Origin: an uncultured Verrucomicrobiae bacterium | GTDB taxonomy: Bacteria; Verrucomicrobiota; Verrucomicrobiia; Chthoniobacterales; UBA10450 | Length of the DNA stretch: 64,000 bases | Reading direction: 5' to 3' | NCBI GenBank assembly: GCA_963726745.1 | Contig: CAVSDR010000002.1 | Span: 160,001-224,000 of the forward strand | Shown: positions 3-58,817 of the stretch, in pieces | Layout of the letters: each line of letters begins with the position of its first letter | How positions within the stretch are numbered: position 1 is the stretch's first letter | Translations under genes and position numbers: made by a program | Notes under the pieces: model-generated | Told to the model about the DNA's origin: nothing | Seen by the model: only the letters and a program-made list of their open reading frames with translations | Databases searched by the model: none

Positions 3-1397
3 GATTCGCTGAAGAATCGGGCGCTCCGCGAGCGCATCATGCAGACCTCGCTCACGCGCAACAGCAAGGGCGGCGAGTGGGATAACCGCGAAGTCGTGAG
101 CCGGATCGCCAAGCTGCGCGCAGAACGTGCGACGCTTTTAGGTTACCCGAATCACGCCGCTTACCAGCTCGAGGACCAGACCGCCGGAAGCGTGCCGACG
201 GTGAACAAAATGCTGGCTGGGATCACGCCGCCAGCTGTGCGCAATGCGAAAAAGGAAATCGCCGACATGCAAAAAGTGATCGACGAGCAGGGGGGCGGCT
301 TCCAGCTGCAGCCGTGGGATTGGGACTTTTATGCCGAGCAAGTGCGGCAGGCGCGCTACAAGTTCGACGAGGGCCAAATCCGCCCTTACCTCGAGTTGAA
401 CCACGTCCTGATCGACGGCGTTTTCTTCGCCGCGACCAAGGAATACGGGATCACTTTCAAGGAACGCAAAGACCTCCCGGTTTACCTGCCAGACGTGCGC
501 GTCTTCGAGGTCTTCAACGCCGACGGCTCGCCCCTGGCGATCTTCATCGCCGATTACTACGCGCGGCCATCGAAGCGCGGCGGCGCCTGGGCCACGGCTT
601 ACGTGGGGCAGTCAAAACTGCTCGGGACGCGGCCGGTGATCGCGAACCACCTCAACATCCCGAAGCCGCCGGAGGGCCAGCCGACGCTCCTGACCTGGGA
701 CGAAACCAAGACCGCTTTCCATGAATTTGGTCACGCGCTGCACGGGATGTTTTCAGATGTGAAATATCCGCGCTTCAGCGGCTCGAGCGTGCCGCGCGAC
801 TTCGTCGAGTTCCCATCGCAAGTGAACGAGATGTGGCAGGCCTGGCCGGAAATCTTGAAGAACTACGCGAAACATTATCAGACCGGCGAGCCGATGCCGC
901 AGGAGTTGCTGGATAAAGTTTTCGCGGCGGAAAAGTTCAATCAAGGGTTCAAGACCACGGAATATCTCGAAGCAACCTTGATCGACCAGGCCTGGCACCA
1001 GCTCGCCCCGGCCGATGTGCCTAACGACACCATGGCCTTTGAGGCGGAAGCCTTGAAGAAAGCCGGGATCGACCTCCCGGTGGTCCCGCCGCGTTATCGC
1101 AGCCCGTATTTCTCGCACAGTTTCGCGGGCGGTTATTCGGCCGGTTACTATAGCTACATCTGGAGCGAGGTGCTCGATGCCGACACCGTGAAGTGGTTCA
1201 AGGAAAACGGCGGCCTTACGCGCGAAAACGGCGACCGCTTTCGCAAGACGCTACTCTCGCAAGGCGGGAGCAAGGAAGCGATGGAGCTCTTCCGCGACAT
1301 GGTCGGGCACGATCCGCAGATCGAGCCGCTGCTGGCGCGCCGTGGCCTCGAAGCTGACCTCGTTCCGGAAGCGGCGCCGCCGCCAAACGCGAAATAG
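3..1397 (+). CDS. dcp: M3 family metallopeptidase (peptidyl-dipeptidase Dcp-like), 5'-truncated by window edge
   Basis: HEFGHALH zinc motif, VPRDFVEFPSQ, GGYSAGYYSYIWSEVLDAD; the frame is open to the window start. Confidence 0.9.
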   Translation, partial: DSLKNRALRERIMQTSLTRNSKGGEWDNREVVSRIAKLRAERATLLGYPNHAAYQLEDQTAGSVPTVNKMLAGITPPAVRNAKKEIADMQKVIDEQGGGFQLQPWDWDFYAEQVRQARYKFDEGQIRPYLELNHVLIDGVFFAATKEYGITFKERKDLPVYLPDVRVFEVFNADGSPLAIFIADYYARPSKRGGAWATAYVGQSKLLGTRPVIANHLNIPKPPEGQPTLLTWDETKTAFHEFGHALHGMFSDVKYPRFSGSSVPRDFVEFPSQVNEMWQAWPEILKNYAKHYQTGEPMPQELLDKVFAAEKFNQGFKTTEYLEATLIDQAWHQLAPADVPNDTMAFEAEALKKAGIDLPVVPPRYRSPYFSHSFAGGYSAGYYSYIWSEVLDADTVKWFKENGGLTRENGDRFRKTLLSQGGSKEAMELFRDMVGHDPQIEPLLARRGLEADLVPEAAPPPNAK

Positions 1398-1401
1398 CCG
1401 G

Positions 1402-2991
1402 CTACTTCTTCGCCTCGAAACGCGCGCGGCCTTCGTCGATGTAGGTGCGGCCGCCCGCGTGTGAGAGCTCGAGGGTTTGCTCCCAGGTTCCGCCGGGAAA
1501 TTCCCGCTCGGTGCGCACGGTTTCGCGACGTTCCGTCGGCGCGGCTGCGGCGGAAGGAACCAGCGCCTCGTGCAGCACGCGGCCGTCGAGCGGCTCCGGC
1601 GGCTGCAGCTGGAGGAGATGCATGATCGTGGCGGCGACGTCCAGGTTCGAGCTGGGAAGATCGCTCGCAAGGCCGGGGCGAAAATCCGGCCCGGCGGCGA
1701 TGCAAGTGTTGTGGAGATCGAAGGGGCTGAGCGAGCCGTGCGTGGCCAGGTTGTTGTCTGTGCCGGCGCTCGATTCGACCAGCCCGGCGACGCCGTGCCG
1801 GTTGCGCTCTCGCGTCCAGCGGAAGGGGACGATCACATCGGGACCATTGGCTGCGTCGAGATGAAGCTCCGCCAGGGTGAAAGTGCCGGCTATTTTTTCG
1901 CGGGCAAAAATCGGCCCGGCGACGTCCGATTGCTGCAAGGCCTCGACCAAACGCGCGATCGTTTTCGTTTCGTGCTCGCCCACATACAGGAAGCTCACCC
2001 CGCCGTTGCCTACGACCTTGATCTCGCCGGGCGCGAGGCGGTTCGCCTCCTTGCCAGCGAGATGGAAGTCCCGCGCACCGAGAAATTCCTTGAGATCCAC
2101 CCGGCGCGCGATCGTGGAGAAGCCGTGATCGGATGCCACCAGCACGTCGGTCGCGGCGCGCACGCCCTTCTCCTCGAGCGCCGCGAGGACGCGCCCGAGA
2201 TTGTGGTCGACCGAGCGAAGCGCGGCCAGGGCCTCGGGGCTGCCGGGCATGGTCGCATGCTGGGCGTGGTCCGGGTCGCTCATCCAGAGAACGGAGAATC
2301 GCGGCACGCCCTCGGCCCAGAACACCTCGGTGAGCGCACGCGTGGTCCACTCATCCTCGACGCCATTCGCGGCCGCGCCTTCGGCCGGGAATTGACCCAG
2401 CAACTTGACGAACCGGTCGAGCGCCGACGGGGGCTCGCTCTCGCCCTTGAAAATTGTGACCGCACCGGGGCCGCGCGGCCGGCGATCGTGCAAGAGCCCG
2501 GCGGACTTGGTGCCCGCGACTGCGACTTGCCCGCCCGCCGCGCGGACGAGCTCAGCGATCGTGGGCGCGCCGAGGTAATGGCCCTCGGTGAGCGCGTCGC
2601 CTTTGCGGATGGTCTCGGCGTCGTCCATGCGCGCTGGTTTTTCGCCGGCGAGATCGGGGCGAAAGGCCCAGTTCGCGATCACCCCGCTTCGCTGCGGGAA
2701 GACGCCGGTGGCGAGGGCGGTGGCGTTGACACTCGTTAGGCTGGGATAGACGGAGTGATGCCGGCGGAAGGTCACGCCCGCCTGGGCGAGCTGCCAGAGC
2801 TGCGGCGTGTTCTCGGCGCTGACGAAATCCGGCCGCATGCCATCCCAGACGATGAGGACCACGTGCCGCGCCCGCGGCGCCGTCTCGCTGTCTGTTTTCG
2901 CGAGAGCGGCAAACGGGAGTGCGGCCAGCAGGGCAATACGGCAACAACAGCGCAGGCGCATGAGCGGGAGCTTCGCACGAAGGGCGCGCAT
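1402..2991 (-). CDS. Alkaline phosphatase superfamily nucleotide pyrophosphatase/phosphodiesterase, exported
   Basis: Signal peptide; VVLIVWDGMRPD, PSLTSVN nucleophile region, DPDHAQH, SDHGF, THGSLS motifs; start codon uncertain (2991 or 2961). Confidence 0.85.
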   Translation of the reverse strand: MRALRAKLPLMRLRCCCRIALLAALPFAALAKTDSETAPRARHVVLIVWDGMRPDFVSAENTPQLWQLAQAGVTFRRHHSVYPSLTSVNATALATGVFPQRSGVIANWAFRPDLAGEKPARMDDAETIRKGDALTEGHYLGAPTIAELVRAAGGQVAVAGTKSAGLLHDRRPRGPGAVTIFKGESEPPSALDRFVKLLGQFPAEGAAANGVEDEWTTRALTEVFWAEGVPRFSVLWMSDPDHAQHATMPGSPEALAALRSVDHNLGRVLAALEEKGVRAATDVLVASDHGFSTIARRVDLKEFLGARDFHLAGKEANRLAPGEIKVVGNGGVSFLYVGEHETKTIARLVEALQQSDVAGPIFAREKIAGTFTLAELHLDAANGPDVIVPFRWTRERNRHGVAGLVESSAGTDNNLATHGSLSPFDLHNTCIAAGPDFRPGLASDLPSSNLDVAATIMHLLQLQPPEPLDGRVLHEALVPSAAAAPTERRETVRTEREFPGGTWEQTLELSHAGGRTYIDEGRARFEAKK

Positions 2992-2999: not shown

Positions 3000-4376
3000 C
3001 TACTTCGCCGCCTTCGGCAGCTTCCCGGCGACGGCGGCGGTCAGATCGGGAATGTCATGCACATTGAGGACCACCGGCGTCATGCTCGTGGTTCGGCCGC
3101 TGGTGTCGAGGACGGCGTTGAAGCTGCCGGCGCGCGCGACTTCGCCCACAACGGCGATGATTTCCTGGATGATCGGCTGGCGCTTGTGCTGGAGGAGATT
3201 CGAGATTTGCGCCTGCTTCTCGCCCCGTTCCAACGGGCTCAGCGCGGCCATTTCCGCGACCGCGTTTTTCGTGGTCTCCTGGATTTCCGCCTCGGCCTTT
3301 TTGCCGTTAGCCGACTCTTTGTAGAGCCGCTCGATGTCGACCAATCCGAAGCGCAGTTCGCTCGAGAGCACGCCGGTGGTGGCCGTTCCTTTCGTGGCCG
3401 TTTCGCCGTTGACCGCCGCCACCAGGTCGCTGGTAAAATCCGGCAGTCCCTGCGAAAAAACGAGGAAGGGGACGGTCGACATGCCCTGGCCGGTGCGGTC
3501 GAAGAGCAAGGAAACGCGGTCGCCCGCGATCTTCTCGAGCGTGCGCGCCATCTCCTGGACGATCGGCTGGCGCGCCTCGAGCATGGCCTGGCCGATTTCC
3601 TTCTCCTTCGCGGTGCGGAATTGTGCGAGCTCTTCCTCCAGCTTCTGTGCTTTCGCTTCCTGGGCGGCCCGCGCGGTCTCGGCCAGGTCGGCGATCCTGG
3701 CGCGCTCCGCTTTCAAGGCGCTGGTTAATTTCTCGTTCTCCGTGCGGGCGCTTTCCTGGGCGTTCTTCAGTTTCTCCTCGGCCGTCTTGGTTTGCCGGAG
3801 CTGGGTGAAGACACCGTTGAGATCGATCGTGCCGACGCGCAGGCCGCGCACGGAATTGACGTTTCCGGCGTCCTTGCCCTCGAGCGCGCTCGCGAGCCGC
3901 GTGGTGATCTCCGCCTCGGAAGGATGGAGGACAACGAAAGGCACGCCGCTGACGCTCAAGCCGCTGAAGTCGAAAACGAGGCCGATGTTTTGCGCGAGGC
4001 GGTTCACTGCGCCGTTGACGTCGCGCAGGATGGTCTCGCGCAGGGCGGTGCCTTGTTGCTGGATCTCGGCGGCGCGGGCCTGCTGCCAGAGGAGAATCTC
4101 GGCCTGCTTTTCCGCGACCGCCGTCTTGTCGGTTAATTTCTTCAGCTCGGCCTGGCGGCTTTCGTATTCCTTGAGCGCGGCCTTGCTCGCTTCCTCGACT
4201 TTGGCGGAGGCTTCCTTGGTTTGCGGGAGGCCCTTGAAGAGCGCGTCCAGGCTCACGAAGGCGAAGCTGGGATCGCGCCCCGATTTCTCGGTGGCCGGCG
4301 CCGGCGAAGGCGATGCGGCGGGGAGGGGCAGGGCGCTAAGGAGCACCAGGCCGGTGCAGACGAGAACGGTTTTCAT
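3000..4376 (-). CDS. OmpH/Skp family chaperone with three tandem Skp domains
   Basis: Signal peptide, then three repeats of (F/V)xx(V/I)(S/D)L..coiled coil..(L/A)(V/L)(F/L)DxSG...P(F/V)V....D(I/F/L)T. Confidence 0.7.
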   Translation of the reverse strand: MKTVLVCTGLVLLSALPLPAASPSPAPATEKSGRDPSFAFVSLDALFKGLPQTKEASAKVEEASKAALKEYESRQAELKKLTDKTAVAEKQAEILLWQQARAAEIQQQGTALRETILRDVNGAVNRLAQNIGLVFDFSGLSVSGVPFVVLHPSEAEITTRLASALEGKDAGNVNSVRGLRVGTIDLNGVFTQLRQTKTAEEKLKNAQESARTENEKLTSALKAERARIADLAETARAAQEAKAQKLEEELAQFRTAKEKEIGQAMLEARQPIVQEMARTLEKIAGDRVSLLFDRTGQGMSTVPFLVFSQGLPDFTSDLVAAVNGETATKGTATTGVLSSELRFGLVDIERLYKESANGKKAEAEIQETTKNAVAEMAALSPLERGEKQAQISNLLQHKRQPIIQEIIAVVGEVARAGSFNAVLDTSGRTTSMTPVVLNVHDIPDLTAAVAGKLPKAAK

Positions 4377-4385: not shown

Positions 4386-4988
4386 CTAGCTCCAGACCGG
4401 GCGGATGGCAGTGGCAGGTCGCTGGCAAAATGCCTCGAAGTCTTCCCGCGACCAGAGCACCCGGCAGATGCCGCCATCGAGTCCCGCGAGCTGAGCCCGC
4501 TGCCATTGCTCTGCCCGAACGGTGAAAGGCCCCACGCGGCCTAACGAGTCCGCGCAATCGGCGTTGTCGGAATCGGAAGCCACGTAGGCGCCCTCCGGAA
4601 GCGCGCACAACAGATCGCGGGTCAGCCGGGCGTGCACCACCGTGCCCCAGGTGATCGGTGCATCCTCGATGTCGCGGATGCGCGCGGCCGGCTGTTCATC
4701 GAGGTAGGAAAGCGTGGCGCCAAGCTCGATCGCCTTCGCCTGCAGCGGCTGCACGAGCGCGCAAAGATTTTCGCTTTCGCCATTCTGCAGCCAAACGCGC
4801 AGGCCGCCATCGGTCCATTGCGCCAGCGCCTTCCAGCCTCGCCGCCGCGCCTGGTCGCAAATGGAAACCGCGAAGTCCTCCACGTCGCGGCGCGTCTCGA
4901 CCTCGCCGGGGCAGGTGAGCAGGAAAACGATCTGGCGGGTGCGGTTATCGGGAGGAGCGAGAGTGGCCACGAAAGCGCAGGCTAACAA
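4386..4988 (-). CDS. Hypothetical protein
   Basis: 200-aa ORF filling the gap between nuoI and the Skp gene on the same strand; no recognisable motif; start uncertain. Confidence 0.45.
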   Translation of the reverse strand: MLACAFVATLAPPDNRTRQIVFLLTCPGEVETRRDVEDFAVSICDQARRRGWKALAQWTDGGLRVWLQNGESENLCALVQPLQAKAIELGATLSYLDEQPAARIRDIEDAPITWGTVVHARLTRDLLCALPEGAYVASDSDNADCADSLGRVGPFTVRAEQWQRAQLAGLDGGICRVLWSREDFEAFCQRPATAIRPVWS

Positions 4989-5025: not shown

Positions 5026-5565
5026 CTAAGCGGGTTTCTTTTTCGCAGCGGCGGCAGCCGCGAGGCGTCCGTCGACCTCGGCGGCCTCCACCGGGTGGAT
5101 CGCGTGATAGTATTCGTTAGACTTCGCCAGCTCCGGCTTCTCCAGGAGGAAGGCGTCGAAGCGTTCCCGCCGGCTTAGCTCGAAAACCTTGTCCATCTTG
5201 ATCGCCTCAAACGGGCATACTTCGACGCAAATCTGGCAGCTCATGCAGACCGAGATATCGATGTCGAAAGTGGCTGGATAAAACTGCGGCTTCTCCAGGT
5301 AGTCCGGTTTTTTGTCCGTGCTCTTGACGATGTAGATGCACTGCGGCGGGCATTCTTTTTCGCAGATCTTGCAGGCGACGCAACGCAGCCCGGCCTCGGC
5401 GTTGTCGCCATCGAAGACGAGAAAAGGGAAGTTGCGGTAGTTCTCCGGCAGGGGCGCGCGCTCCTCGGGATACTGCACGGTCGTTAGGCGGTCCTCCTCG
5501 AAATAGCTTCCGACAAAGTTCCGCAGGGTCACGCCCATGCCCTTGAGAATCCCGGTGCCGATCAT
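5026..5565 (-). CDS. nuoI: NADH-quinone oxidoreductase subunit I (2x[4Fe-4S])
   Basis: TVQYPEE, CVACKICEKECP and CMSCQICVEVCP ferredoxin motifs. Confidence 0.9.
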   Translation of the reverse strand: MIGTGILKGMGVTLRNFVGSYFEEDRLTTVQYPEERAPLPENYRNFPFLVFDGDNAEAGLRCVACKICEKECPPQCIYIVKSTDKKPDYLEKPQFYPATFDIDISVCMSCQICVEVCPFEAIKMDKVFELSRRERFDAFLLEKPELAKSNEYYHAIHPVEAAEVDGRLAAAAAAKKKPA

Positions 5566-6043: not shown

Positions 6044-6059
6044 GCGCTCGTTAGCCGGC

Positions 6060-7217: not shown

Positions 7218-7871
7218 TCGTTAGGCGTCAGGGCCTGGTCGGCTGGTCTGGCGCTCTGGTGCGCCTTGGATTTAGCCAGCACTTCGTCGTGCGCGGTCGG
7301 CTCGTATTCGTAGTCATCCGGCTCGACGTAATCTTTCCGCATCGGGAAGTCGGTAAATTCGTCCCACATGAGGATGCGGCGCAGGTCGGGATGGCCGTCG
7401 AATTGGATCCCGTAAAGGTCGAAGATCTCGCGCTCCTGGAATTCCGCGCTCCGCCAAACCGGCGTAAGCGAAGGGAGATGCACCCGCTGCCGCGCGATCG
7501 CCAGTGCGCAGGCGAAGGATCACCGGGCCGTGCTTAAAGGCGATGGAGTAAAGATGGTAAACCGCCTCGAGGTGGCCAGGGATCGTCTCCTCCGTCACTT
7601 GCTCGACTTCCTTCTCCTCGCCTTCGACGACCTGCTTCACTTTTGCCGTCCGCTTCACCTTGCGCTCCGGCCAGTCGACCCCGGTCGCGTTCGAGCAGAA
7701 GTCGAGGCGCAAGGCGGGATCGTCGTGCAGGAAACGCGCGACCCGCAGCGCGTGCTCCGAGTTCAGCAAAAGCGAAGGCTGATTGGCCGGGCCAGGATTC
7801 GCGATGACTTCGATCTGCGCACCGGGCACCGCCGCTTCCACGCGCGCCTTGATTTCCTCGAGCGACTCCAT
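7214..7871 (-). CDS. nuoC: NADH-quinone oxidoreductase subunit C (frameshift near 7485)
   Basis: N-part [18 protein letters not shown] in ORF 7314..7871; C-part [40 protein letters not shown] in ORF 7214..7483. Confidence 0.9.
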
Positions 7872-7874
7872 TCG

Positions 7875-8499
7875 TTAGGCACGCTCGACCACCGGCGGAT
7901 GGAAGACCTCCGGATTCAACGGCGGCTCGAGGTCGTGCGCACCGAAGGCCGGCACCGGAAACTCGCTGGGCTGCGTCGCGGTCGAGGTGCGCCGCTTTCA
8001 TCTCGCCGGTTAATTTTTGCCCGTCGATCTTGCGCTGTAGTTCCATGAAAGCATGGAGCAACGCCTCCGGCCGCGGCGGACAGCCGGGAATGTAAACGTC
8101 CACCGGAATGTAGCGGTCGATTCCTTTGAGCACGTTGTAACCTTGCTTGAACGGTCCGCCGGAAATCGCGCACGCGCCCATCGCGATGACGTATTTCGGA
8201 TCGGGCATCTGGTTGTAGAGCCGGACGATTTGCGGCGCCATTTTCTTGGTCACGGTGCCGGCCACGATCATGAGATCGGCCTGGCGCGGCGAGGGCCGAA
8301 AAACTTCGCCGCCGAAGCGCGCGAGATCATACTTCGAGGCGGCGGTCGCGATCATCTCGATCGCGCAACAGGCGAGCCCGAACTGCAGCGGCCAGATGGA
8401 ATTCTTGCGGCCCCAATTATAGAGCTCCTGCATCGAGGTGACCCAGATGCCTTGCTTCTGGAGTTCGCTTTGCAGGTTGCTGTCTATTTCTGTGCTCAT
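7875..8499 (-). CDS. nuoB: NADH-quinone oxidoreductase subunit B (frameshift near 7972)
   Basis: [35 protein letters not shown]; the shifted tail PSEFPVP..VERA ends at TAA 7875-7877. Confidence 0.93.
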
Positions 8500-8592: not shown

Positions 8593-8973
8593 CTATCGCG
8601 ACCAGTCGAGACAACCTTTGCCCCAGGCCCAGACCAAGCCTTCAAGCAGCAGAAGCACGAAAACAAGCAGCGCGATGAAAGCGCCCACCGGCAGGCCGGT
8701 GAAGGCGACCGCAAAGGGGACCAGGAAAATCGCCTCGACGTCGAAGATCAGGAAAATGATCGCGTAGAGGAAATACTGCGAGCGGAACTGCACCTGCGCT
8801 TCGCCTAACGACTCGATGCCGCATTCGTAGGTGGCGTTTTTGCGCGCGCCCGGCCGGGGTGGTTGAAAAAAGCGCCGCCAGAGCCAGGCGAGCGCGAGCG
8901 GGAGCAACGGGAAAACCAAGGCCACGCCGGCAAAAAGGACGATGAAGAAGTAAGGATCGGGCGCAGTTCCCAT
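8593..8973 (-). CDS. nuoA: NADH-quinone oxidoreductase subunit A
   Basis: KNATYECG, FLIFDVEAIFLVP, KGCLDW; three TM helices. Confidence 0.93.
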   Translation of the reverse strand: MGTAPDPYFFIVLFAGVALVFPLLPLALAWLWRRFFQPPRPGARKNATYECGIESLGEAQVQFRSQYFLYAIIFLIFDVEAIFLVPFAVAFTGLPVGAFIALLVFVLLLLEGLVWAWGKGCLDWSR

Positions 8974-10686: not shown

Positions 10687-10694
10687 CGAGACGG

Positions 10695-32107: not shown

Positions 32108-32110
32108 CGA

Positions 32111-43650: not shown

Positions 43651-43708
43651 GGGACAGGGACATGACGCGACGCTGTCGCTGCGCGAAAAAGGAGAGTAAC
43701 GTAAACCC

Positions 43709-47402: not shown

Positions 47403-47429
47403 CGGGTGGTCGGCTAATTTTCCCCCGCG

Positions 47430-47762: not shown

Positions 47763-49027
47763 GCGTGCGAAGTTGCTGGCTGTTTCTTGCTCTCCTGGCC
47801 TGCGCGGCGCGGGCGCAAGAGCCGGACGATTGGGAGGCTGAGCACCGAAAAACCGCCGCCGAGTTACTCGAGCAATGGAGGAACGCCGCGACCCCGGAAG
47901 CCCGGCAAAAATTAGCCGACCCTCTGCTCACGGCCGCGGTTTACTCCGGCCAGCCGGAAGTCGTGACCGAGGTCGTCACCGGCGGCAAATTTGCTGAGCG
48001 GGAGATTGCTTTCCCGGCAACCACGGAACGGGTCGCGCTCCAGCCATTGCAGACCTTTCCTTACGACCAGCGCCCTTACTCAAACGGCCCGAGCTGGGTG
48101 GTCCGCCGCCTAACGAGGAATCGCTTCGAGCTCTGGATTCCATCCCACGGCTGGCTCTTCGATCGCGCCGGCCGTTTACTCAACGAAGCGCGGCCGCCGC
48201 GGCGCGATGGCACGGGCCGCGAATGGTATGGCGCCTTCCTGCCCGACGGCCGCTGGGTCACGACCGATCTCTGGGAAATGGACAAGACGCTGCATTTCTT
48301 CTCGTCCGCGGGGAAGTGGGTCCGCGACGTGAAAGCGCTCGACCTCGTGCCGCTGGGCCATCCGGACGGGATGAGCACACTTTCGCTCATTGGCTGGTGC
48401 CGCAGCGACCGGGAGGGCCAAGGATTTGTCGTCAGCGTGGGCGATAATGGCGGCCGCGGCCTTGCCTGGGTCGACGGAAAGGGAAACCACCGCCTGCTCG
48501 CGCCTAACGAGTCGCCGTGGGCGCTCTGCTATCCGCGCGATCTCGAGCCGAAAGGGATGTATCTCCACCTCACACGGCCGAGCGACGACGGCGCTGCCTG
48601 GGCCACGCGCGACGAGCCGGGGCACGGGATGTTTGTCGGTTATCCACGTTACGAGTGGGGGCCGCCGGCGCTCACGGTTCCGCAAGGGCAAACCTTTGGC
48701 TTTTGGCCCGGAACGCACGAGGTCTATGTCGTGACGGAAAATTACGTTGAGCCGAGAGCCGCGCGGACCTGGTTCTTCAGCGCGGCGGGGGAGTTCCAGG
48801 GATGGGTGGAGGCCCGAAGATTAGCCGACGACTCGGCAACCAGCGGCATGCTCTTCGCCGCCGCGGATGGGCCCGTGGTCACTTTGTCGAACCAGCGCCA
48901 GGTCGAGCGCGTGCGGACCTTCACCTGGGAGAACGGCGAGGTTGCCGTGCCCTTTTCCATCTTCCCGGATCTCCACCGCGGATTCTTCACCCGCGGGAAG
49001 GAGCTCGTGCTGGCGCGCTGGAAATGA
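47759..49027 (+). CDS. Hypothetical exported protein (Trp/Gly-rich, beta-rich)
   Basis: Signal peptide; coupled to both neighbours by 4-nt overlaps. Confidence 0.6.
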   Translation: MSVRSCWLFLALLACAARAQEPDDWEAEHRKTAAELLEQWRNAATPEARQKLADPLLTAAVYSGQPEVVTEVVTGGKFAEREIAFPATTERVALQPLQTFPYDQRPYSNGPSWVVRRLTRNRFELWIPSHGWLFDRAGRLLNEARPPRRDGTGREWYGAFLPDGRWVTTDLWEMDKTLHFFSSAGKWVRDVKALDLVPLGHPDGMSTLSLIGWCRSDREGQGFVVSVGDNGGRGLAWVDGKGNHRLLAPNESPWALCYPRDLEPKGMYLHLTRPSDDGAAWATRDEPGHGMFVGYPRYEWGPPALTVPQGQTFGFWPGTHEVYVVTENYVEPRAARTWFFSAAGEFQGWVEARRLADDSATSGMLFAAADGPVVTLSNQRQVERVRTFTWENGEVAVPFSIFPDLHRGFFTRGKELVLARWK

Positions 49028-50076
49028 AAATGACGCTTACTTTTCGCCGTTACGATTTGCAGTTAACCCACAACTGGATGGTCGCGAGCAGTCAGGCCAG
49101 CGGCGGGAAAACGATTTATCCCGCCGTCTTCGTCGAGCTGCGCGATGCCGACGGCGTGCTCGGCCGCGGCGAGGCGGCGCCGTCCAATCGCTACCTGGAA
49201 ACGGCCGACACCTGCCTCGCGTTTCTCGAGAAAGTGGACGCCGGCCGGCTGAGCTTTGACGATCTCGCCGGGAGCATGGCTTATCTCGAAAACCTGACGC
49301 CGGGCGACTTCTCGCCCAAGGGCGCGGTCAACATCGCCCTGCTCGACGGCGCGGCGAAAAGAGCCGGCCAGACGTTGCACGCTTTCCTCGGGCTGCCTTT
49401 CCACGAAGGCGCGCACCTCACTTCCTTCACCATCGGCATCGACACCCCGGAAATGATGCGCCGGAAGACCGAGGAAGCCGCGACCTTCCCGGCTTTGAAG
49501 CTCAAGGTCGGCTCGCCTAACGACTCGATCAATCTCGCCGCCTTGCGCGCGGTCGCGCCGCAGAAGCGCCTGCGGGTGGATGCGAACGAAGCCTGGCTCA
49601 CGAAAGAGGATGCGCTCCGGCGGATCGAAGAACTGGCGCGCGATCCGCAGATCGAATTCATCGAGCAACCGCTGCCGGCCGCGAACCCGCCGGAGGATTT
49701 CATCTGGCTAAAGGAGCGCTCGCCGCTGCCGATCGTGGGCGACGAATCTTTTCATCGTGCGAGCGACGTCCCGCGCTGCGCGGAGTGCTTTCATGGGGTG
49801 AACATGAAGCTGGCTAAAACCGGCGGCGTCCTTCGCGGGCTCGAGGCGCTGCAGGCCGCGCGCGCTGCCGGCTTGAAAACGATGATCGGCAGCATGGTGG
49901 AGTCGAGCATCCTCACTTCCGCGGGCGCGCATCTGGCCGCGCTGGCGGATTGGCTCGATCTCGACGGCATGCTCCTGATCCGGAACGATCCGTTCCGCGG
50001 CGTGACGGCCGAGAGTGGGATAATGTCCTTCGCGCAAGCCGCGGAGCCGTGCGGTCTGCAGGTCGAGCCGCGCTGA
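49024..50076 (+). CDS. Dipeptide epimerase (L-Ala-D/L-Glu epimerase, enolase superfamily)
   Basis: GEAAP, LKLKVG, RVDANEAW, FIEQP, GDES, NMKLAKTGG, DLDG. Confidence 0.9.
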   Translation: MKMTLTFRRYDLQLTHNWMVASSQASGGKTIYPAVFVELRDADGVLGRGEAAPSNRYLETADTCLAFLEKVDAGRLSFDDLAGSMAYLENLTPGDFSPKGAVNIALLDGAAKRAGQTLHAFLGLPFHEGAHLTSFTIGIDTPEMMRRKTEEAATFPALKLKVGSPNDSINLAALRAVAPQKRLRVDANEAWLTKEDALRRIEELARDPQIEFIEQPLPAANPPEDFIWLKERSPLPIVGDESFHRASDVPRCAECFHGVNMKLAKTGGVLRGLEALQAARAAGLKTMIGSMVESSILTSAGAHLAALADWLDLDGMLLIRNDPFRGVTAESGIMSFAQAAEPCGLQVEPR

Positions 50077-50084: not shown

Positions 50085-50397
50085 TTAAACGCGCTCGTCG
50101 CGCGGCGCCGGCTCTTCCATCGGCGCAGCCGCGGGCGCAGGTGCGGCGCGCGGCCGGCGGGAGCGAGTGCGGCACGCGATCATTCGCCGGCACGGGCGCA
50201 TTCGTCGGCGTGTGCGCGGTTTGCAATTCCGTGGTGAAGTCGTCCTTCGCCTTGTGGAATTCGCGCATCGCCTGGCCCATCCCCTTGGCCAGTTCCGGGA
50301 GGCGCTTGGCCCCGAAGAGCACGAGCACAATCAGCAGGATGACGATCAGGTCGGGTCCGCCGAGATTCGTTAGGCTGGCAAGAAGTTCGAGGTTCAT
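50085..50397 (-). CDS. tatA: Twin-arginine translocase subunit TatA/E (frameshift in the tail near 50160)
   Basis: LGGPDLIVILLIVLVLFGAKRLPELAKGMGQAMREFHK. Confidence 0.88.
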
Positions 50398-50499: not shown

Positions 50500-51817
50500 G
50501 TGCGCCGTCTTCCGTATTTTTTCCTTCTCGCCATCGTGGTCGTGGTCGGCGGGTGGATTTTTTCGCGCGGGCTCGCCGTCGCTCCAACGCCTCGCGCAGT
50601 CGTGAACGATCCGCTGGCGGTCGTCCTGACTCCCTTGGTGGGCGACGGCGAGCTCGATCGCGAGATTGCGAACTTGCAGGGGCGGATTAAGACCAGCCCT
50701 GACCGCAAAAGCCTGCTCGAACGGCTCGGCTGGGCCTTTGTCGCGAAGGCGCGCCTAACGAGCGATCCTGGTTTCTACAAGCTAGCCGAGCAAGCGGCTC
50801 AGGCGATCACCGACGAGACACCGGAAGATCCGGCGGCGGCTTTGCTCCTCGGCCATGTTTATCACGCCGAGCATCGCTTTGCCGACGCGGAAAAAATTGC
50901 GCGCACTTTGATCGCGCGGCGGGAATTTGCCTTCGACTACGCGCTCCTGGGCGATGCGCTCATGGAGCAGGGGAAGCTGGCGGAGGCGGTGCCGGCTTAC
51001 CAAAAAATGGTCGACCTGAAGCCCGGCCTCCAGACTTACAGCCGGGTGGCCAATATGCGCTGGCTCAAAGGCGACCTGGCGGGCGCGATCGCGGCCAGCC
51101 GGCGCGCCGTCAGCGCCGGTTCGCCGCGGGAACCGGAGCCGACCGCTTGGGCTTACACGCAACTGGCCCACTACCAAACCGCGGCTGGCGAACTCGAAGA
51201 GCGCCGCGACCAACGTCTCGTTAGGTCTGCAGCTGGCGCCGGACTACGCGCCCGCTTTGTTGCAACAAGGTAAGATTTTCTTGGCGCAGGGTCGCGGTGC
51301 GGAGGCGATTGCCGCGCTCGAGCGTGCAGCCGAAATCAGCCCACTGCCGGATTACCTTTGGTCGTTAGCCGACGCTTTGCGCGCGCAAGGCCGGGAGGGG
51401 GAAGCTGGCCAGGTCGAGCGCCGCCTCGTGGCCACGGGGGCGCAGTCCGATCCGCGCACCTTCTCGCTGTTCCTAAGCTCCCGCCGGCAGAATCCCACGC
51501 TCGCGCTGCGCCTGGCGCAGGAGGAACTCGAGAATCGCCACGACATTTTCACTTACGACGCGGTCGCCTGGGCGCAATTAGCCAGCGACATGGTCGGGCC
51601 CGCGCGCGAAAACATCGCGCTCGCTCTCGCTGCCGGCACGCAGGACGCGCGTCTTTTCCAGCACGCGGCCGAGATCGCTGCCGCCGCGGGGGACCAGGCC
51701 CAGGCGCTCGAATTTTCCCTCAAGGCCCGCGCGCTTGAGCAGAGCTTGCTCCCTTCCGAACGCCAGGCCCTTGCCCGCCGGTTCCCCGCCGACGCGCGCA
51801 CTGCTGCCTCTGACTAA
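50500..51817 (+). CDS. Membrane-anchored TPR protein (frameshift near 51200)
   Basis: N-terminal TM helix; TPRs ALLGDALMEQGKLAEAVPAYQKMVDLKPG; continues in ORF 51257..51817 with DIFTYDAVAWA. Confidence 0.8.
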
Positions 51818-51848: not shown

Positions 51849-53759
51849 ATGAAACCGCTCCCAATTCCCGGCACCGGCAAGTTGCTGGCTGCGCTCTGCG
51901 CCGCCACCTTCGCCGCCGCTGTGCCACTGCACGCCTCCAGTCACATGGATGCACCGCTCATCACCCTGGACCCGGCCGCGAACACGACCGACGTCTACGC
52001 CTTCGTGGCCATGCGTGGCACCGATAACGCCAAAGTGCTGGCTACTTCCCTCGCGGTTTATCCGTTCGAGGAGCCCGGCATCGGGCCGAACAAGTATAAC
52101 TTCGACGACAACGTCCTTTACCAGATCCACGTCTCGTTAGGTAACGACCTGGCCGCGGGCGTGCCCACGATCTCCTACCAGTTCCGTTTCACCACGAGCT
52201 ACAAGAACACCGGCACCATCCTGCAGTCTTATCTCGGCGTGGTGAATGACGTCGACGATGCGAATCAAAACCTGACCCAGAACTACACCCTGACCAAGGT
52301 TGACCGCCGCACGAACACCACCACGGTGCTCGGCACGGGGGTTGTCCCGCCGAACAACCAGGGCATCGCGACGCCCTTCTATAACACCGGCGACAGCGGC
52401 GAGGCCGTGGCCAAGCCGGGTGTCGGGCCTGGAGGCACGCTGGATAAATACACGCGCCAGGCCATTGCCAGCTTCACCGCCGGGAGCGCGACTTATCGCA
52501 GTTTCGCCGGTCAGCGTGAGGACGGTTTCTACGCCGACATCCAGTCGATCTTCGACCTGCTGCAGTTGCGCAGCGGCAAGGCGACCTTCGATAGCCAGGC
52601 CGGCTTCAACGTCCACGAAATGGGCCTGGAAATTCCCATCTCGGAACTGGGTAACGACCAGCAGATCGTAGGCGTTTACGCGACCACTTCCCGTCAGTCG
52701 ATGCGCGTTCTGACCGATGGCACCGCCTCCACTGACCCCGCGAACACCGGCGCGTTTGTGCAGGTCGGCCGGCAGGGCAATCCGCTCTTCAACGAAGCGC
52801 TCGTCGCCATTACGGACAAGGATCTCTACAGCCGCACGCAGCCCGAGCGCAGATGCCAGCTTGTTCAAGAAATACGCCGAGACTCCTGAGCTCGCGAAGT
52901 TGATCAACGCGATCGTCTTCAAGGGCATGGGACCGGCGCCGGAAACCAATCGCACGCGATCTCGTCGGCATCTTCATTCCCGACTTGATCAAGGTCGACC
53001 TTTCGACGGCTCCGGCGCGGCTGGCCGGTGGTGGCCCGACCTTCGCCGCGAACCCTGATGACGCTGGCTACAGCCGCCTGGGCATCTTCGGTGGCGACAC
53101 CCTCACGAGCACGGTGCAGGCCGGCTTTGGCAGCGGCACGGTCCCCGGTGGCTGGCCCAACGGCCGCCGCTTCGGCGACGACGTGGTCGACATCGCGGTG
53201 ACCGCGATCATCAGCGACCTGCGCACCAGCCCGCCGACGATCCGGTCGGCTGATGGGATCGATAACGTGAGCAAGAACGACAGCGTTTACAGCCGCGTTT
53301 TCCCTTACGCCGCGACGCCGCATAACGGCCGCAATCACGACCATCACAACACCGGACGCCGCAGGCGGCGCCGCGAGCTCGAATCGCTTCCGCAACCTGG
53401 CCACGCGCGGTCTCGTGCAGTCGGGCGACAATGTCCTTATCGGCGGCATCATTGTCGGCGACGGCGGAAACAAGAGAGTGCTCATCCGTGGCGTTGGACC
53501 TTCGCTCTCGACCAAGGGCATCTCCAATCCGCTGGCTAATCCTGTGCTGCAGATCTTCCAAGGCGGCACCAAGATCGCCGAGAACGACGACTGGAAGAGC
53601 ACCCAGCAGGCGGACATCCAAGCCACTGGCCTCGCGCCGACGGACGATAAAGAAGCTGCAATCCTGATCGACCTCGCTCCGGGGAGCTACACCATGATCG
53701 TGCGAAGCAAGGACACGACTACCGGCATTGGCCTGGTCGAAGCCTACGAAGCGAACTAA
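51849..53759 (+). CDS. DUF4331 family secreted protein with an extra C-terminal extracellular domain (several frameshifts near 52845, 52960, 53355)
   Basis: ASSHMDAP, TDVYAF, FAGQREDGFY, QVGRQGNPLFNE, GWPNGRRFGDDVVDI, FPY; tail NLATRGLVQSGDNVLIGGII..RGVGPSL. Confidence 0.8.
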
Positions 53760-54948: not shown

Positions 54949-54979
54949 CATGCCTAACGAGTGATGTAGCTGGCTAAAA

Positions 54980-57166
54980 CTACCAGATGCTCACGATCTG
55001 GTCCGCCGGACGCACCATCGGGCAGTTATCCGGCAAGCCGAAGGCTTGCTTGAATGCCGGAGTGTTCGAGAGCGGGCCATTTGCGCGATACTTACCCGGC
55101 GAGTGCGGGTCGGTATTCAGGCGCAGCTTGAGCGCTTCGTCGCGCATGTTTGCCCGCCAGACTTGCGCCCAGCCGAGAAAGAAACGCTGCTCTGGCGTAA
55201 AGCCGTCGATCTTTTCCTGCGGCTTATCCTTCAGCGCCTTTTGCAGCGCGGCGAAGGCCAGCTTGACGCCGCCATCATCTGCGATGTTCTCGCCCTGGGT
55301 CAGCTCGCCGTTAATGTGCATCCCGGGGAGCGGCTCGTAGGCGGCATATTGTTTCACGATCTTATCGGCGCGTTCCTTGTATTTCTCGGCCGATTCCTTG
55401 GTCCACCAATCGCGCAGATTACCTTCCGCATCGTATTGCCGGCCCTGGTCGTCGAAGCCATGGCTGATCTCATGGGCGATGACCGCGCCGATGCCGCCGT
55501 AGTTGATCGCGTCGTCTGCGTTCGCATTAAAGAACGGCGGCTGGAGGATGCCGGCCGGGAAGACGATTTCGTTCATGTTCGGGTTGTAGTAGGCGTTCAC
55601 CGTTGGCGGCGTCATGCCCCACTCATTACGATCAACCGGCTGGCCGATTTTTTTGAGCTCGCGATTGGTTTCGAACTTGGCCGCGCGCATTGCATTCAAG
55701 ACAAACGGGCCGCGATCGATCTCCAGCGCGGAGTAATCGCGCCACTTGTCCGGGTAACCGATCTTGACCGTGAAAGCCGCGAGTTTCTTGAGCGCCTCGG
55801 CCTTGGTCTTCTCGTCCATCCAGTCGCGCGACTTGATGCTATCGGCCATGGCGGATTGCACGTTCTTGACCAACTCGATCATGCGCGCCTTGGATTCCGG
55901 CGGGAAGTTATCGGCCACATAGATTTTGCCGAGGGCTTCGCCGAGCGCCTGGTCGGTCGAGGTGACGACGCGTTTCCAGCGCGGCTTGAGTTCCTTCGTG
56001 CCGGTGAGGGTCTTGCCGAAGAACTCGAAGTTCTCGTTCACGAAGTTGCTGGCTAATTCCGGCGCGGTCGCGTGGACCAGGTGCCAGCGGAGATAAGTCT
56101 TCCAGTCTTCCAGCGGAGTCTTGGCGAAGACGGTATTCGCCGCCTTGAAGAAGTCCGGCTGGCCGACGTTGATGTCGGCCGGTTCGGCCAGGTCGATCGC
56201 CTTGAAGTAAGACTTCCAGTTCCAGTCCGGGGTTAGCTTTTGCAAGCCGGCCACGTCGACTTTGTTGTAGTTCTTCTGCGGGTCGCGCAGCTCCACGCGG
56301 GTGCGGGCCGGCTTCGCCAGCGAAGTCTCCAGGGCCATGACCTTCTTCGCGTCCGCGCCGGCTTTGTCCGCCGGTTCGCCGAGAAGCGTGAGCATCTTGG
56401 TCATGTGGGCGACGTATTGCTCGCGCAGTTTCTTCGAGGCTTCGTCTTCCTTGGTGTAGTAATCGCGATCCGGCAGGCCGAGCCCGCCCTGGTAAGCCTG
56501 GGCGATGACCATCTTGCTATTCTTATCGTCCTGCCCGGAGGTGAAGCCGAAGAAGGCACTTACGCCGAGGGAATGCAGATGCGCGATCTCCTGGAGGAGG
56601 TCTTCCTTCGTCTTGATCGCCTCGATCTTTGCCAATTCGTCGGCTAACGGCTTCGCGCCTGCTTCATCGATCGCTTTTTCGTCCATCCCGCTGGCGTAGT
56701 AGTCGCCTACCTTCTTCACGTCGGGCTCGGACGCGGCCTGACCGGCAGCGGCTTTCTCCGCGGCGACTTTGAGCGCGGCGTTATTTTTCTCGATCAACTC
56801 ATTGAAGCTGCCCCAGCGCGATTCTTCCGGCGGGATGGGGTTGTTCTTCAGCCAGGTGCCGTTGGCGTAGGTGTAGAAATCCTCGGAAGGCTTCACCGAG
56901 GTATCCATGTTCTTGAGGTCGAAGGCGGGCGCGTTCTTGCTCGGGGTCGCGGCCGCGGCAGCAGCGTCATTCCCCGCGGTGACTTTCTCGGGAATGGTCG
57001 CGGGCGGGGGGATTTGATCGCCGCTCGGCGGTTGCGAAGGCTTGTGGACTTGCGGCGGCGGGGTGGCGCTGCCGATGGGCTGGGCGTTTTTCTGTGGCTC
57101 GCTCTGCGCCTGCACCGAGCAGGTGAGAGCAACGCTCGCCAGAAGAAGCGAGGTGGTTTTGAACAT
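54980..57166 (-). CDS. M13 family metallopeptidase (neprilysin/PepO-like), exported
   Basis: DFYTYANGTW, VNAYYNP, IAHEISHGFDDQG, GENIAD, DPHSP. Confidence 0.95.
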   Translation of the reverse strand: MFKTTSLLLASVALTCSVQAQSEPQKNAQPIGSATPPPQVHKPSQPPSGDQIPPPATIPEKVTAGNDAAAAAATPSKNAPAFDLKNMDTSVKPSEDFYTYANGTWLKNNPIPPEESRWGSFNELIEKNNAALKVAAEKAAAGQAASEPDVKKVGDYYASGMDEKAIDEAGAKPLADELAKIEAIKTKEDLLQEIAHLHSLGVSAFFGFTSGQDDKNSKMVIAQAYQGGLGLPDRDYYTKEDEASKKLREQYVAHMTKMLTLLGEPADKAGADAKKVMALETSLAKPARTRVELRDPQKNYNKVDVAGLQKLTPDWNWKSYFKAIDLAEPADINVGQPDFFKAANTVFAKTPLEDWKTYLRWHLVHATAPELASNFVNENFEFFGKTLTGTKELKPRWKRVVTSTDQALGEALGKIYVADNFPPESKARMIELVKNVQSAMADSIKSRDWMDEKTKAEALKKLAAFTVKIGYPDKWRDYSALEIDRGPFVLNAMRAAKFETNRELKKIGQPVDRNEWGMTPPTVNAYYNPNMNEIVFPAGILQPPFFNANADDAINYGGIGAVIAHEISHGFDDQGRQYDAEGNLRDWWTKESAEKYKERADKIVKQYAAYEPLPGMHINGELTQGENIADDGGVKLAFAALQKALKDKPQEKIDGFTPEQRFFLGWAQVWRANMRDEALKLRLNTDPHSPGKYRANGPLSNTPAFKQAFGLPDNCPMVRPADQIVSIW

Positions 57167-57268: not shown

Positions 57269-58717
57269 ATGCATTGGGCCCGGCAGATCATTTTCCTCCT
57301 CCTTCTGGGCGCGTGCTCCGTCGTCGGGTCGGCTTTCGGCGCGGCTGACTGGAAGGTGGTCAAGGTTTCCGGCTGGGATTACCTCTCGGTCGAGAACGTG
57401 GCCCGCTTCTACGGCTTTGCCGGGAGCGTCGAGCCGATCAATCGCACCGTGCGCCTCGATAACGGCGCCAACCAGCTCGAGGTCACGCTCGACAGCCGCG
57501 AAGCGATCGTGAACGGCGTGCGCAATTGGCTTTGCTTCCCGGTGATCGAGCGCGAGGGGAAATATCTCATCTCCCGGATCGACCTCGCGAAAACGATCGA
57601 GCCGCAATTCCGCCCGCACATGATCCGGAATCTCGGGCGCCTGAAGACGGTGGTGATCGACCCCGGCCATGGCGGCCCGGAGAACGGCGCCGGCAGCAGC
57701 TTCGGCCGCGAAAAAGATTTCACCCTCGACGTCGCGAAGAAGCTCAAGCCGCTCCTGGAAGCGCGCGGCCTGCGCGTGGTCATGACCCGCGATCGCGATG
57801 AGCTCGTGCCACTGCCGGAGCGCGCCAGAATAGCCAACAACACGCGCGACAGCGTCTTCGTGAGCATTCATTTCAACGCCACCGATTACAACTCCAGCGC
57901 CACCGGCTTTGAGATCTACTCGCTCACCCCGCGCGGCGCTCCCTCCACGCAGGATAACGCGATGCTCTCGCACTTCGTGAACATGCAGGCCGGGAGCGCA
58001 GTCGATGCGAACAGCCTGGTCCTTTCCACTTCCGTCTACCACGCGATGCTCGGCTACCTCCCGGAGTTCGACCGCGGGATCAAGCGCGCCCGCTTCGCCG
58101 TGCTCCGGCTCACCAACATCCCGGCGATCTTGGTGGAGGGCGGATTCCTCACGGAACGCGACGAGAGCAAGGAGATCGCCGATGCGCAGTGGCGCACCAA
58201 GCTCGCGGAAGCGATCGCCACCGGGATCGATGGCTACCGCAACTTGCTCGAGAAGAAACAGCGTCCGCTGCTCCTGGCGGATTATCGCCGGCAATTCGAG
58301 GGCGTCCTGGTGGCGCGCGATGCCACCGCGCCGCTGCCCGGGTCGACACCGCCGGTCTTCCCCGCGAGCAACCCCGCCGTGGGCGCGCAGGTGACGCAGC
58401 CGCTGCACCGCCAGCCTTCGCCGCAGATCACGGTCACGCCCGAGATGGCGGCTGCGCTCGAGTCCGCGCCCAGCCACGAAGGGGACGAGGGCGTCGAGTC
58501 CGCGGAGGTCGCGGCTAATGCGGCCACGCCAGCCCCGGTGGAAATAGCCGACGAGATGCCTACGGCGGCCGCCGCGCCGGAGACTCCGGCGGCCACGGCG
58601 CCGACCCCGGAGATCCCGATCGTCTGGAAGGACGAGGCCGCGCCGGCGGCAGCGGCGCCAATGGTGCGTCGCTCCTGGGTGCTGAAATTCGATCCGCCGC
58701 CGAAGTTCCGGGAATAG
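57269..58717 (+). CDS. N-acetylmuramoyl-L-alanine amidase with N-terminal accessory domain and Pro/Ala-rich tail
   Basis: VIDPGHGG, EKDFTL, SIHFNA, ILVEGGFLT. Confidence 0.9.
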   Translation: MHWARQIIFLLLLGACSVVGSAFGAADWKVVKVSGWDYLSVENVARFYGFAGSVEPINRTVRLDNGANQLEVTLDSREAIVNGVRNWLCFPVIEREGKYLISRIDLAKTIEPQFRPHMIRNLGRLKTVVIDPGHGGPENGAGSSFGREKDFTLDVAKKLKPLLEARGLRVVMTRDRDELVPLPERARIANNTRDSVFVSIHFNATDYNSSATGFEIYSLTPRGAPSTQDNAMLSHFVNMQAGSAVDANSLVLSTSVYHAMLGYLPEFDRGIKRARFAVLRLTNIPAILVEGGFLTERDESKEIADAQWRTKLAEAIATGIDGYRNLLEKKQRPLLLADYRRQFEGVLVARDATAPLPGSTPPVFPASNPAVGAQVTQPLHRQPSPQITVTPEMAAALESAPSHEGDEGVESAEVAANAATPAPVEIADEMPTAAAAPETPAATAPTPEIPIVWKDEAAPAAAAPMVRRSWVLKFDPPPKFRE

Positions 58718-58817
58718 CCGGCATTCTCTCCGGCCATGCTCGGCCGGATTCTCCAGCGTTGACGCTGCGGGTCGGCGTTCGTTAGGCTGAGCGCTCAGAC
58801 TCAACCAAAGGAGAACC

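Follow-up and report, generated by a model that had tools for sequence, protein, structure and literature searches.

What could cause one short, non-palindromic word to be written 40 times into 64 kb of a bacterial chromosome? The question is raised by a stretch of DNA from an uncultured Verrucomicrobiae bacterium, here called the window (the whole stretch of 64,000 nucleotides that was analysed), which corresponds to C2:160001-224000 of genome G000 (3.41 Mb in 7 contigs, 94.7% complete). The word, termed word 1, has the 7-mer core TCGTTAG (complement CTAACGA) and is also considered below as the 9-mer TCGTTAGGC and the 10-mer CTCGTTAGGC (complement GCCTAACGAG). A previous inspection of the letters of the window, referred to as the sequence-only reading, had noted its excess and likened it to the DNA uptake sequences (DUS) of Neisseria and the uptake signal sequences (USS) of Pasteurellaceae. 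We find that word 1 is hyper-abundant and unpolarised, is maintained at orthologous sites, has left an imprint on the proteome, is missing from a low-GC (guanine plus cytosine) gene cluster and is restricted to one bacterial family. Judged from its sequence signature, it may well be a family-wide self-DNA signal of the DNA-uptake-sequence kind, a reading that we hold to be evenly balanced between right and wrong. That the word is read at the step of DNA uptake, and which protein might read it, we infer from this pattern.

Word 1 in the window and across the genome

In the window, the core occurs 23 times on the plus and 17 times on the minus strand, and 15 of these copies lie in the exact 10-mer CTCGTTAGGC/GCCTAACGAG. 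Expectations were taken from 100 dinucleotide-preserving shuffles of the window, which contained 3.10 ± 1.80 cores (maximum 10) and 0.12 10-mers on average; none of the 100 shuffles reached 40 cores, and none reached 15 10-mers. The recount recovered the 40 positions and their division between the strands exactly as the sequence-only reading had listed them by hand, together with its fifteen exact 10-mers, and its claim of an excess over base composition is borne out by the shuffles. Its eyeballed GC content of about 63% is near the values of 0.57-0.65 measured in 4-kb bins.

The enrichment is present on all 7 contigs of G000, and with this the possibility that it is confined to a single contig falls away. 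Genome-wide, the core is found in 2025 copies (991 forward, 1034 reverse) and the 9-mer TCGTTAGGC in 1312. A genome-wide k-mer count, which the sequence-only reading had proposed, ranks the 10-mer CTCGTTAGGC first among all 10-mers of G000, with 820 copies or 106 times the zero-order expectation. A logo built over the 2025 cores reads W(-5) N N A(-2) C(-1) TCGTTAG G C. The conserved part spans about 15 bp, with information at positions -5 to +8, and the flanks beyond it are unrelated among copies. Fixation among the 10-mer's one-mismatch neighbours is 89-100% at core positions and 62-85% at outer positions. Separately, a tandem repeat of the hexamer GCCAAC yields 12-mers of about 145 copies in G000.

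The relation of the word to genes was analysed with a crude set of open reading frames (ORFs), called on the basis of GC content at third codon positions, which spans 80.4% of G000 and whose “intergenic” class surely includes some coding DNA. Inside the called ORFs lie 1598 core copies (about 79%) and outside them 427, which corresponds to 0.584 versus 0.638 copies per kb, and the flank logo is identical for the two sets. On each strand, one frame of the word is interrupted by a stop codon (TAG, TAA), so that four of the six frames are usable in genes. All four stop-free frames are occupied, on both strands, the commonest being TCG TTA G with 627 copies. The independence of frame and strand claimed earlier therefore holds for both strands and for four frames, and is limited by the stop codon, which bars one frame per strand.

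When codons were shuffled synonymously within genes (30 rounds, with the TTA codons supplied by the word itself retained), the 7-mer fell from 933 to 57.3 ± 6.6 copies and its complement from 593 to 71.9, and for the 10-mer the counts dropped from 390 to 4.0, and for its complement from 219 to 5.5. The codons TTA and CTA, which the sequence-only reading had described as rare, make up 3.1% and 1.6% of Leu codons, and its argument that neither protein sequence nor codon bias explains the word withstands the within-gene shuffles. Word 1 is thus a DNA-level word and not a coding effect. It has also reshaped the proteome. In-frame TCG TTA G accounts for 633 of the 2874 TTA codons, and 428 of the 718 Ser-Leu-Gly (SLG) tripeptides are spelled TCGTTAGGC. 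SLG and Pro-Asn-Glu (PNE) occur at 1.53 and 2.41 times the amino-acid expectation in the G000 proteome, and at 0.80 and 0.35 times in 386 kb sampled from the word-poor relative G002.

The two orientations of the word number 233 and 245 in bins of positive GC skew and 752 and 782 in bins of negative skew, with no link between the two properties. Orientation is likewise independent of gene strand, and its order along every contig is random (permutation p 0.18-0.89). Two contigs longer than 1 Mb, each with monotonic GC skew, carry 320/358 and 305/316 copies per strand. The description of the word as unpolarised can consequently be extended to GC skew, gene strand and position on the contig.

Copies are evenly spread, with a mean of 29.2 per 50 kb and a variance of 39.9, and pairs less than 100 bp apart amount to 2.2% versus the 5.8% of a Poisson distribution. 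This rarity of close pairs indicates that the copies of word 1 are not terminator-type inverted pairs. Word 1 density climbs with GC content, from 2.7 to 7.7 copies per 10 kb, and long copy-free stretches exceed the Poisson expectation: 7 versus 1.6 for those of at least 12 kb, and 4 versus 0.27 for those of at least 15 kb. The longest, C7:60030-85007 (25 kb, GC 58%), contains no copy of word 1 and three of a second word, TTAGCCRRC (word 2, described below). It encodes a DegT-type aminotransferase, glycosyltransferases of family 2 (GT2), an ABC-2 exporter, a Wzy_C protein and epimerases, a gene content by which it is assigned as an O-antigen-type surface-polysaccharide cluster; it is the sole copy-free stretch annotated at this level. 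Surface-polysaccharide clusters are typically exchanged horizontally. Depletion in acquired or hypervariable DNA is seen here as an excess of long copy-free stretches, the largest of which is this low-GC polysaccharide cluster. Two other copy-free stretches contain pilin clusters.

The window ORFs that carry copies match the families 4Fe-4S, Oxidored_q4, NADHdh, Proton_antipo_M, ELFV_dehydrog and ATP synthase alpha chain, in agreement with the host genes named in the sequence-only reading (nuoI/A/H/L/M/N, gdhA and atpA). The individual cores are as follows.

1021..1027, minus strand, word 1 core
2733..2739, plus strand, word 1 core in exact 10-mer CTCGTTAGGC
4541..4547, minus strand, word 1 core in exact 10-mer
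5114..5120, plus strand, word 1 core in the 4Fe-4S ORF (nuoI of the sequence-only reading)
5481..5487, plus strand, word 1 core in the 4Fe-4S ORF (nuoI of the sequence-only reading)
6048..6054, plus strand, word 1 core overlapping the word 2 copy at 6051
7218..7224, plus strand, word 1 core
7872..7878, plus strand, word 1 core
8805..8811, minus strand, word 1 core in nuoA-type ORF
10683..10689, minus strand, word 1 core in exact 10-mer
11300..11306, minus strand, word 1 core in exact 10-mer, gdhA-type ORF
14148..14154, plus strand, word 1 core in nuoH-type ORF
15981..15987, plus strand, word 1 core in exact 10-mer, nuoL-type ORF; site common to 11 of 14 aligned species
16995..17001, plus strand, word 1 core in nuoM-type ORF
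17258..17264, plus strand, word 1 core in nuoM-type ORF; a gain specific to G000 that changes an amino acid
17724..17730, minus strand, word 1 core in nuoM-type ORF; site common to 7 of 14 species
18098..18104, plus strand, word 1 core in exact 10-mer; site common to 9 of 14 species
19345..19351, plus strand, word 1 core in exact 10-mer
19926..19932, minus strand, word 1 core in exact 10-mer
20980..20986, plus strand, word 1 core
24664..24670, minus strand, word 1 core
26337..26343, plus strand, word 1 core
27712..27718, plus strand, word 1 core in exact 10-mer
29380..29386, plus strand, word 1 core overlapping the word 2 copy at 29383
30146..30152, minus strand, word 1 core
32104..32110, minus strand, word 1 core
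33363..33369, plus strand, word 1 core in ATP synthase alpha ORF
44748..44754, minus strand, word 1 core in exact 10-mer
46290..46296, plus strand, word 1 core in exact 10-mer
47635..47641, minus strand, word 1 core
48110..48116, minus strand, word 1 core in exact 10-mer
48504..48510, minus strand, word 1 core in exact 10-mer
49517..49523, minus strand, word 1 core
50367..50373, plus strand, word 1 core
50755..50761, minus strand, word 1 core in exact 10-mer
51218..51224, plus strand, word 1 core
51362..51368, plus strand, word 1 core overlapping the word 2 copy at 51365
52134..52140, plus strand, word 1 core
54954..54960, minus strand, word 1 core in exact 10-mer
58779..58785, plus strand, word 1 core

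One 11-kb stretch of the window (33.4-44.7 kb) lacks word 1; it contains atpG, atpD and a BNR-like ORF of 1305 aa. It does not stand out clearly as an island, and about two stretches of that size are due by chance. GC skew is strongly positive (0.085-0.138) at window positions 36000-44000, where the 1305-aa ORF, on the minus strand and with a weak BNR_2 match, is accompanied by two ORFs without a family match.

Word 1 among relatives

The genus was sampled with 34 species genomes including G000, which share about 70-75% identity with G000 in the nuo region; the data for G001, G008, G042, G051, G055, G062, G174 and G205 come from unpublished genomes. As a control we used the word's backwards version. 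Across the 34 genomes, 33 of them assembled independently of G000, the ratio of the 7-mer to this control ranges from 0.7 to 6.7. An alignment of the nuo region from 14 species (about 72% nucleotide identity) places the word at single sites in 11, 9, 9, 8 and 7 species. Species without the word at these sites have synonymous alternatives, such as TCC TTG GGT or TCG CTC GGC, and the third positions adjoining conserved sites vary. Comparison of orthologues, as suggested in the sequence-only reading, thus reveals nuo sites held in up to 11 of the 14 species, with synonymous codons in the non-carriers. Some sites were gained in one or two lineages only, some of them via Ala-to-Ser changes, and copies of word 1 arise in place through point substitution. 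In a tree of 21 species, built from a single 2.2-kb locus and rooted at the midpoint, the word-rich genomes form one clade, and G000 stands apart as sister to a medium-density genome.

The survey of the host family comprised 201 sampled genomes of 36 genera, the family being represented by uncultured-type assemblies only in the genome sets surveyed. The 9-mer is found in all 201, with an excess that ranges from none to about 70-fold, and genera with a common core genome differ more than 50-fold in word density. In one genus, each of the 21 genomes has at least 1241 copies, with maxima of 4633 in 4.3 Mb and 4336 in 3.2 Mb. All five genomes of another genus carry 1808-2628 copies, and one genus of 22 genomes reaches only 0.4-3.6 times the control. 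Outside the family, 109 genomes from the 15 other families of the order contain 0-40 copies, every one of them below the backwards control. Word 1 is therefore restricted to one Verrucomicrobiota family and enriched in much of it. For the phylum, the best named matches to AtpD are metagenome-assembled genomes of Verrucomicrobiota, among them a Chthoniobacter sp. (85%) and a Terrimicrobiaceae (84%). Since even the word-poor members of the family exceed the baseline outside it, the distribution would fit one old origin that was followed by uneven growth and decay.

The 20 one-off variants of the core positions total 357 in G000, or 105 per Mb, and word-poor samples contain 70 and 122 per Mb. As the density of variants resembles that of word-poor samples, mutated core copies do not accumulate. 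The exceptions are TTGTTAGGC, in which TCG is changed to TTG (121 versus 33 for the control), and changes at the outer two positions (645 versus 125). Word density is followed by the TTG variant in all rich genomes, also in those that lack a PF00145 methyltransferase. This independence points to a tolerated variant or to ordinary CpG decay, and not to a specific 5-methylcytosine enzyme.

No replacement word was seen in the word-poor genomes G002 (386 kb sampled) and G166 (188 kb sampled). The top k-mers of these samples belong to a local tandem repeat of a heptad, to GCGATCGC-type palindromes and to a hairpin resembling repetitive extragenic palindromic (REP) elements. The heptads form dense local arrays of the GCTGAAA type in G002:C9:20001-40000, and the GCGATCGC-type palindromes are 6.5- to 10-fold enriched in both genomes. 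The REP-like hairpin, GTCATCCCGAGC..CGAGGGATC, is also present in both. The 9-mer CATCCCGAG, found partly in the full hairpin, occurs 42 times in the 386 kb of G002, 20 times in the 188 kb of G166 and 119 times in G000.

The second word, TTAGCCRRC

A sporadic second word, TTAGCCRRC, is new here. G000 contains 1139 copies of word 2 versus 190 of its control, in equal orientations, and the longer logo reads aaW TTAGCC RRC ra n W T. Compared with synonymous shuffles, three of its four strand and variant forms show an 11- to 17-fold excess and the fourth an excess of about 5-fold (88 versus 17.2). As with word 1, copies arise in place through substitution. Among the 201 family genomes, only three exceed the control, namely G000, G015 and G055, the last being an unpublished genome of another genus; a typical family genome has 40-100 copies versus 250-350 for controls. 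Beyond these three, word 2 is enriched in G011 too. The window contains 23 copies, counted as TTAGCCRRC or its complement and given here without strand.

3307..3315, word 2 copy
6051..6059, word 2 copy
7272..7280, word 2 copy
14792..14800, word 2 copy
16767..16775, word 2 copy that arose in G000 through both synonymous and amino-acid-changing substitutions
24466..24474, word 2 copy
29383..29391, word 2 copy
29519..29527, word 2 copy
37293..37301, word 2 copy
43761..43769, word 2 copy
45060..45068, word 2 copy
46635..46643, word 2 copy
47394..47402, word 2 copy
47409..47417, word 2 copy
47912..47920, word 2 copy
48821..48829, word 2 copy
49809..49817, word 2 copy
51365..51373, word 2 copy
51578..51586, word 2 copy
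53531..53539, word 2 copy
54969..54977, word 2 copy
56048..56056, word 2 copy
56639..56647, word 2 copy

Readings of the word and their consequences

If word 1 is a signal for DNA uptake, a surface or periplasmic component of a type IV pilus/ComEC/DprA pathway would bind or import word-bearing DNA preferentially, and this preference would cause word-bearing fragments from relatives to recombine into the chromosome more often. Over long times the resulting drive, whether or not aided by selection for safe exchange between kin, could create copies in resident DNA through point substitutions, wherever the reading frame permits, and these copies would then be retained.

USS are predominantly intragenic and leave a peptide imprint. 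Word 1 resembles them as a short non-palindromic word with graded flank preferences and thousands of copies, mostly in genes, in both orientations and evenly spaced, with retention at orthologous sites and an imprint on peptides. It differs in that its host belongs to the Verrucomicrobiota, its sequence is unrelated and no ComEA-type domain was found in G000. For USS itself, the accessible part of a recent preprint describes a receptor still without experimental proof, the minor pilin ComN being only predicted (bioRxiv 10.1101/2025.06.16.659825). The parallels with the DUS of Neisseriaceae are of a similar kind: word 1 is the most over-represented 10-mer, has a strict core with looser outer positions, is highly conserved and varies in density between lineages. 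It also has a stop codon in one frame, as do DUS in the portion of the literature available (PMC3630211), and the same text portion describes for Simonsiella a second, related word that co-resides with the first, as in some genomes here. DUS are described, in the accessible sections of another paper, as enriched within the core genome, absent from recently acquired genes and highly conserved, more so than their flanks (PMC2397512); the counterpart here is one annotated low-GC cluster without word 1. Unlike DUS, a single word is used across at least 36 genera without dialect replacement, none having been seen in two word-poor genomes. The signature of word 1 matches the one described for DUS and USS, and differs in phylum, in sequence, in the lack of ComP, in the lack of terminator pairing and in the sharing of one word by at least 36 genera.

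Components that such a pathway would need are encoded in G000. They include ComEC (an 849-aa frame), DprA adjoining topA, three secretins, at least 16 prepilin-type proteins and a cluster resembling type II secretion systems and type IV pili. Minor-pilin cassettes resemble the “Verru_Chthon” cassette, with scores under the model cut-offs. None of these genes is diagnostic. One set of three prepilin-type genes, at C3:1032979-1034821, is weakly similar to Verru_Chthon B, C and D (TIGR02596/8/9), below cut-offs, and lies within a 13.6-kb stretch without word 1. At C6:617266-626130, topA and dprA are adjacent to a diverging set of four unknown or pilin-like genes, the last of which encodes a DUF7305 protein; a stretch of 11.6 kb without word 1 (C6:622688-634302) spans most of this set. 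Most relatives encode a fusion of about 310 aa, in which a staphylococcal-nuclease-like (SNase) domain is joined to a ComEA-type HHH_3 domain (for example in G013, L193:2563-3504, minus strand). The SNase orthologue of G000 (C4:17161-17907) ends just before the linker and the helix-hairpin-helix part.

Several results weigh against a role in uptake. ComEC is found in 33 of the 34 genus genomes, word-rich or word-poor alike, and so does not discriminate between them, and control searches matched ComEC in 10 and DprA in 11 of 14 well-known genomes. No ComP_DUS (PF16732) member was found in G000, where the best match scores 21.9 bits versus a cut-off of 27.3. G000 lacks a ComEA-type domain as well, with only half an HHH_3 domain elsewhere in the genome, and across the host family word density and the occurrence of HHH_3 do not go together. 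The DUF7305 pilin-like protein encoded next to topA-dprA was considered as a receptor and rejected, as it has no link with word density: word-rich G013, G024, G047 and G049 lack it, and word-poor G002 and G003 have it. DUS form close inverted pairs, whereas close pairs of word 1 are rarer than chance; about half of the DUS and USS copies lie in predicted terminators according to the accessible part of an October 2025 preprint (bioRxiv 10.1101/2025.10.24.684340). In strictly non-coding DNA, defined by the lack of any open frame of 150-300 nt or more and making up 0.4-3.8% of this GC-rich genome, word 1 is less dense, at 0.24-0.49 versus about 0.6 copies per kb (7-31 copies); this lower but nonzero density indicates that the word is mainly intragenic and not confined to genes. 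Copy-free stretches and conservation would also be produced by any slow directional process. Finally, we found no report of natural transformation and no uptake experiment for the lineage. The search for competence genes proposed in the sequence-only reading has thus recovered ComEC, DprA, secretins and prepilins, but no ComP-like receptor and no ComEA-type domain. Its likening of the word to DUS and USS stands as far as a DNA-level, genome-wide, unpolarised and lineage-specific word is concerned, and falls short at those same two components.

Instead of uptake machinery, a modification, defence or DNA-binding system might read the word as a genome watermark, for instance a methyltransferase of asymmetric sites together with its cognate reader, or else a self/non-self nuclease regulator. 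We consider this unlikely, if far from negligible. A 7-bp asymmetric core is within the size range of Type IIG and Type III recognition sites, and a search for methyltransferases, also proposed in the sequence-only reading, yielded C5, N6_N4 and N6_Mtase genes or fragments in G000. However, C5 methyltransferases (PF00145) are present in only 10 of the 34 genus genomes and do not track the word, being not found in word-rich G044 (93% complete), G047, G048 and G010. The sole enriched core variant, TCG to TTG, would be in keeping with a watermark of this kind, but it is equally enriched in word-rich genomes without PF00145, and the N6_N4 methyltransferase is 68-78% identical in word-poor G002 and in genomes without word 2. 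The sporadic occurrence of word 2, which crosses genus borders (G000, G011, G015, G055), is consistent with a mobile determinant of specificity. Genomes usually avoid restriction targets and do not enrich them, and we are aware of no system in which modification by itself raises a non-palindromic word to an excess of about 100-fold. The cyanobacterial HIP1 (highly iterated palindrome, GCGATCGC) is likewise hyper-abundant over a broad lineage and conserved as DNA, but it is a palindrome recognised by two known methylases, whereas word 1 is asymmetric and is tracked by no methyltransferase. As HIP1 has now been proposed, in the accessible part of the report, to mark DNA for transformation as a methylation-dependent uptake sequence (PMC13756078), a hybrid is conceivable in which methylation of the word would enhance transformation.

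The word could also be a functionless by-product of sequence-biased repair or gene conversion, in the manner of very-short-patch repair, by which near-matches would be converted into the word and mutated copies restored. The failure of singly mutated core variants to pile up (357 in G000) would then mean that decayed copies are restored or removed, and the origin of copies in place by point substitution is equally compatible. Yet known very-short-patch effects are modest and occur in palindromic methylation contexts, the word's span of about 15 bp and its graded flank preferences resemble a surface of protein-DNA recognition, the more than 50-fold differences in density among genera would require that the process was lost and kept repeatedly, and even spacing is not predicted; on balance we regard such a by-product as improbable. 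A recombination hotspot like Chi, or a chromosome-organising signal like the FtsK-orienting polar sequences (KOPS) and architecture-imparting sequences (AIMS), shares with word 1 the form of a very frequent, non-palindromic 7-10-mer that is mostly intragenic, and Chi in E. coli is indeed frequent and mostly inside genes. These signals are polarised with respect to replication, whereas word 1 shows no orientation bias by GC skew, gene strand or contig position, and the polarity tests lead us to reject a signal of this class as highly improbable. An origin of the word as the relic of a mobile or REP-type repeat, or as an artefact of assembly or polishing, is scarcely credible. REP-like hairpins do occur in relatives, but REP elements and miniature inverted-repeat transposable elements (MITEs) are longer, hairpin-capable units that are mostly intergenic, whereas only about 15 bp of word 1 are conserved, from -5 to +8, between unrelated flanks. 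Its copies are in frame inside conserved genes, and the same word is enriched in much of the family, in assemblies made independently of one another; within the 14 aligned species its positions are often orthologous.

Returning to a signal for DNA uptake, the two words together suggest a further proposition, which we hold tentatively and on balance lean slightly against. The family may practise selective uptake through a receptor unrelated to ComP, which would represent an independent origin outside the Proteobacteria, and its specificity may be replaceable or doubled: word 2 is sporadic in two genera and strongest where the SNase-ComEA fusion is damaged, which would suggest a mobile or switchable determinant. 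Among the genomes with word 2, the SNase-HHH_3 gene is split over at least two frames in G055 and intact in G015, and it was not found in G011, the assembly of which is 71% complete. The coincidence of word 2 with a damaged gene concerns a tiny sample, and we offer no explanation for it.

The sequence-only reading knew of no such signal in this lineage, and in the literature searchable we found no paper that describes word 1 as a bacterial signal or reports uptake sequences in the lineage. In the papers searchable, uptake sequences are described only for Neisseriaceae and Pasteurellaceae, and the October 2025 preprint, as far as its accessible part goes, treats those two families alone (bioRxiv 10.1101/2025.10.24.684340). 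Whatever reads it, word 1 is a strong compositional marker that could aid binning and the spotting of foreign DNA. If it does serve uptake, it would be a third, independent case of an uptake sequence beside those of Neisseriaceae and Pasteurellaceae, and the family would offer a natural experiment on the spread and decay of such a word, with one shared word and an excess from none to about 70-fold among genera. It would also provide a ready handle for genetics, by addition of the word (for example ACTCGTTAGGC) to donor DNA. Above all, natural transformation with kin discrimination would then operate in a major uncultured lineage.

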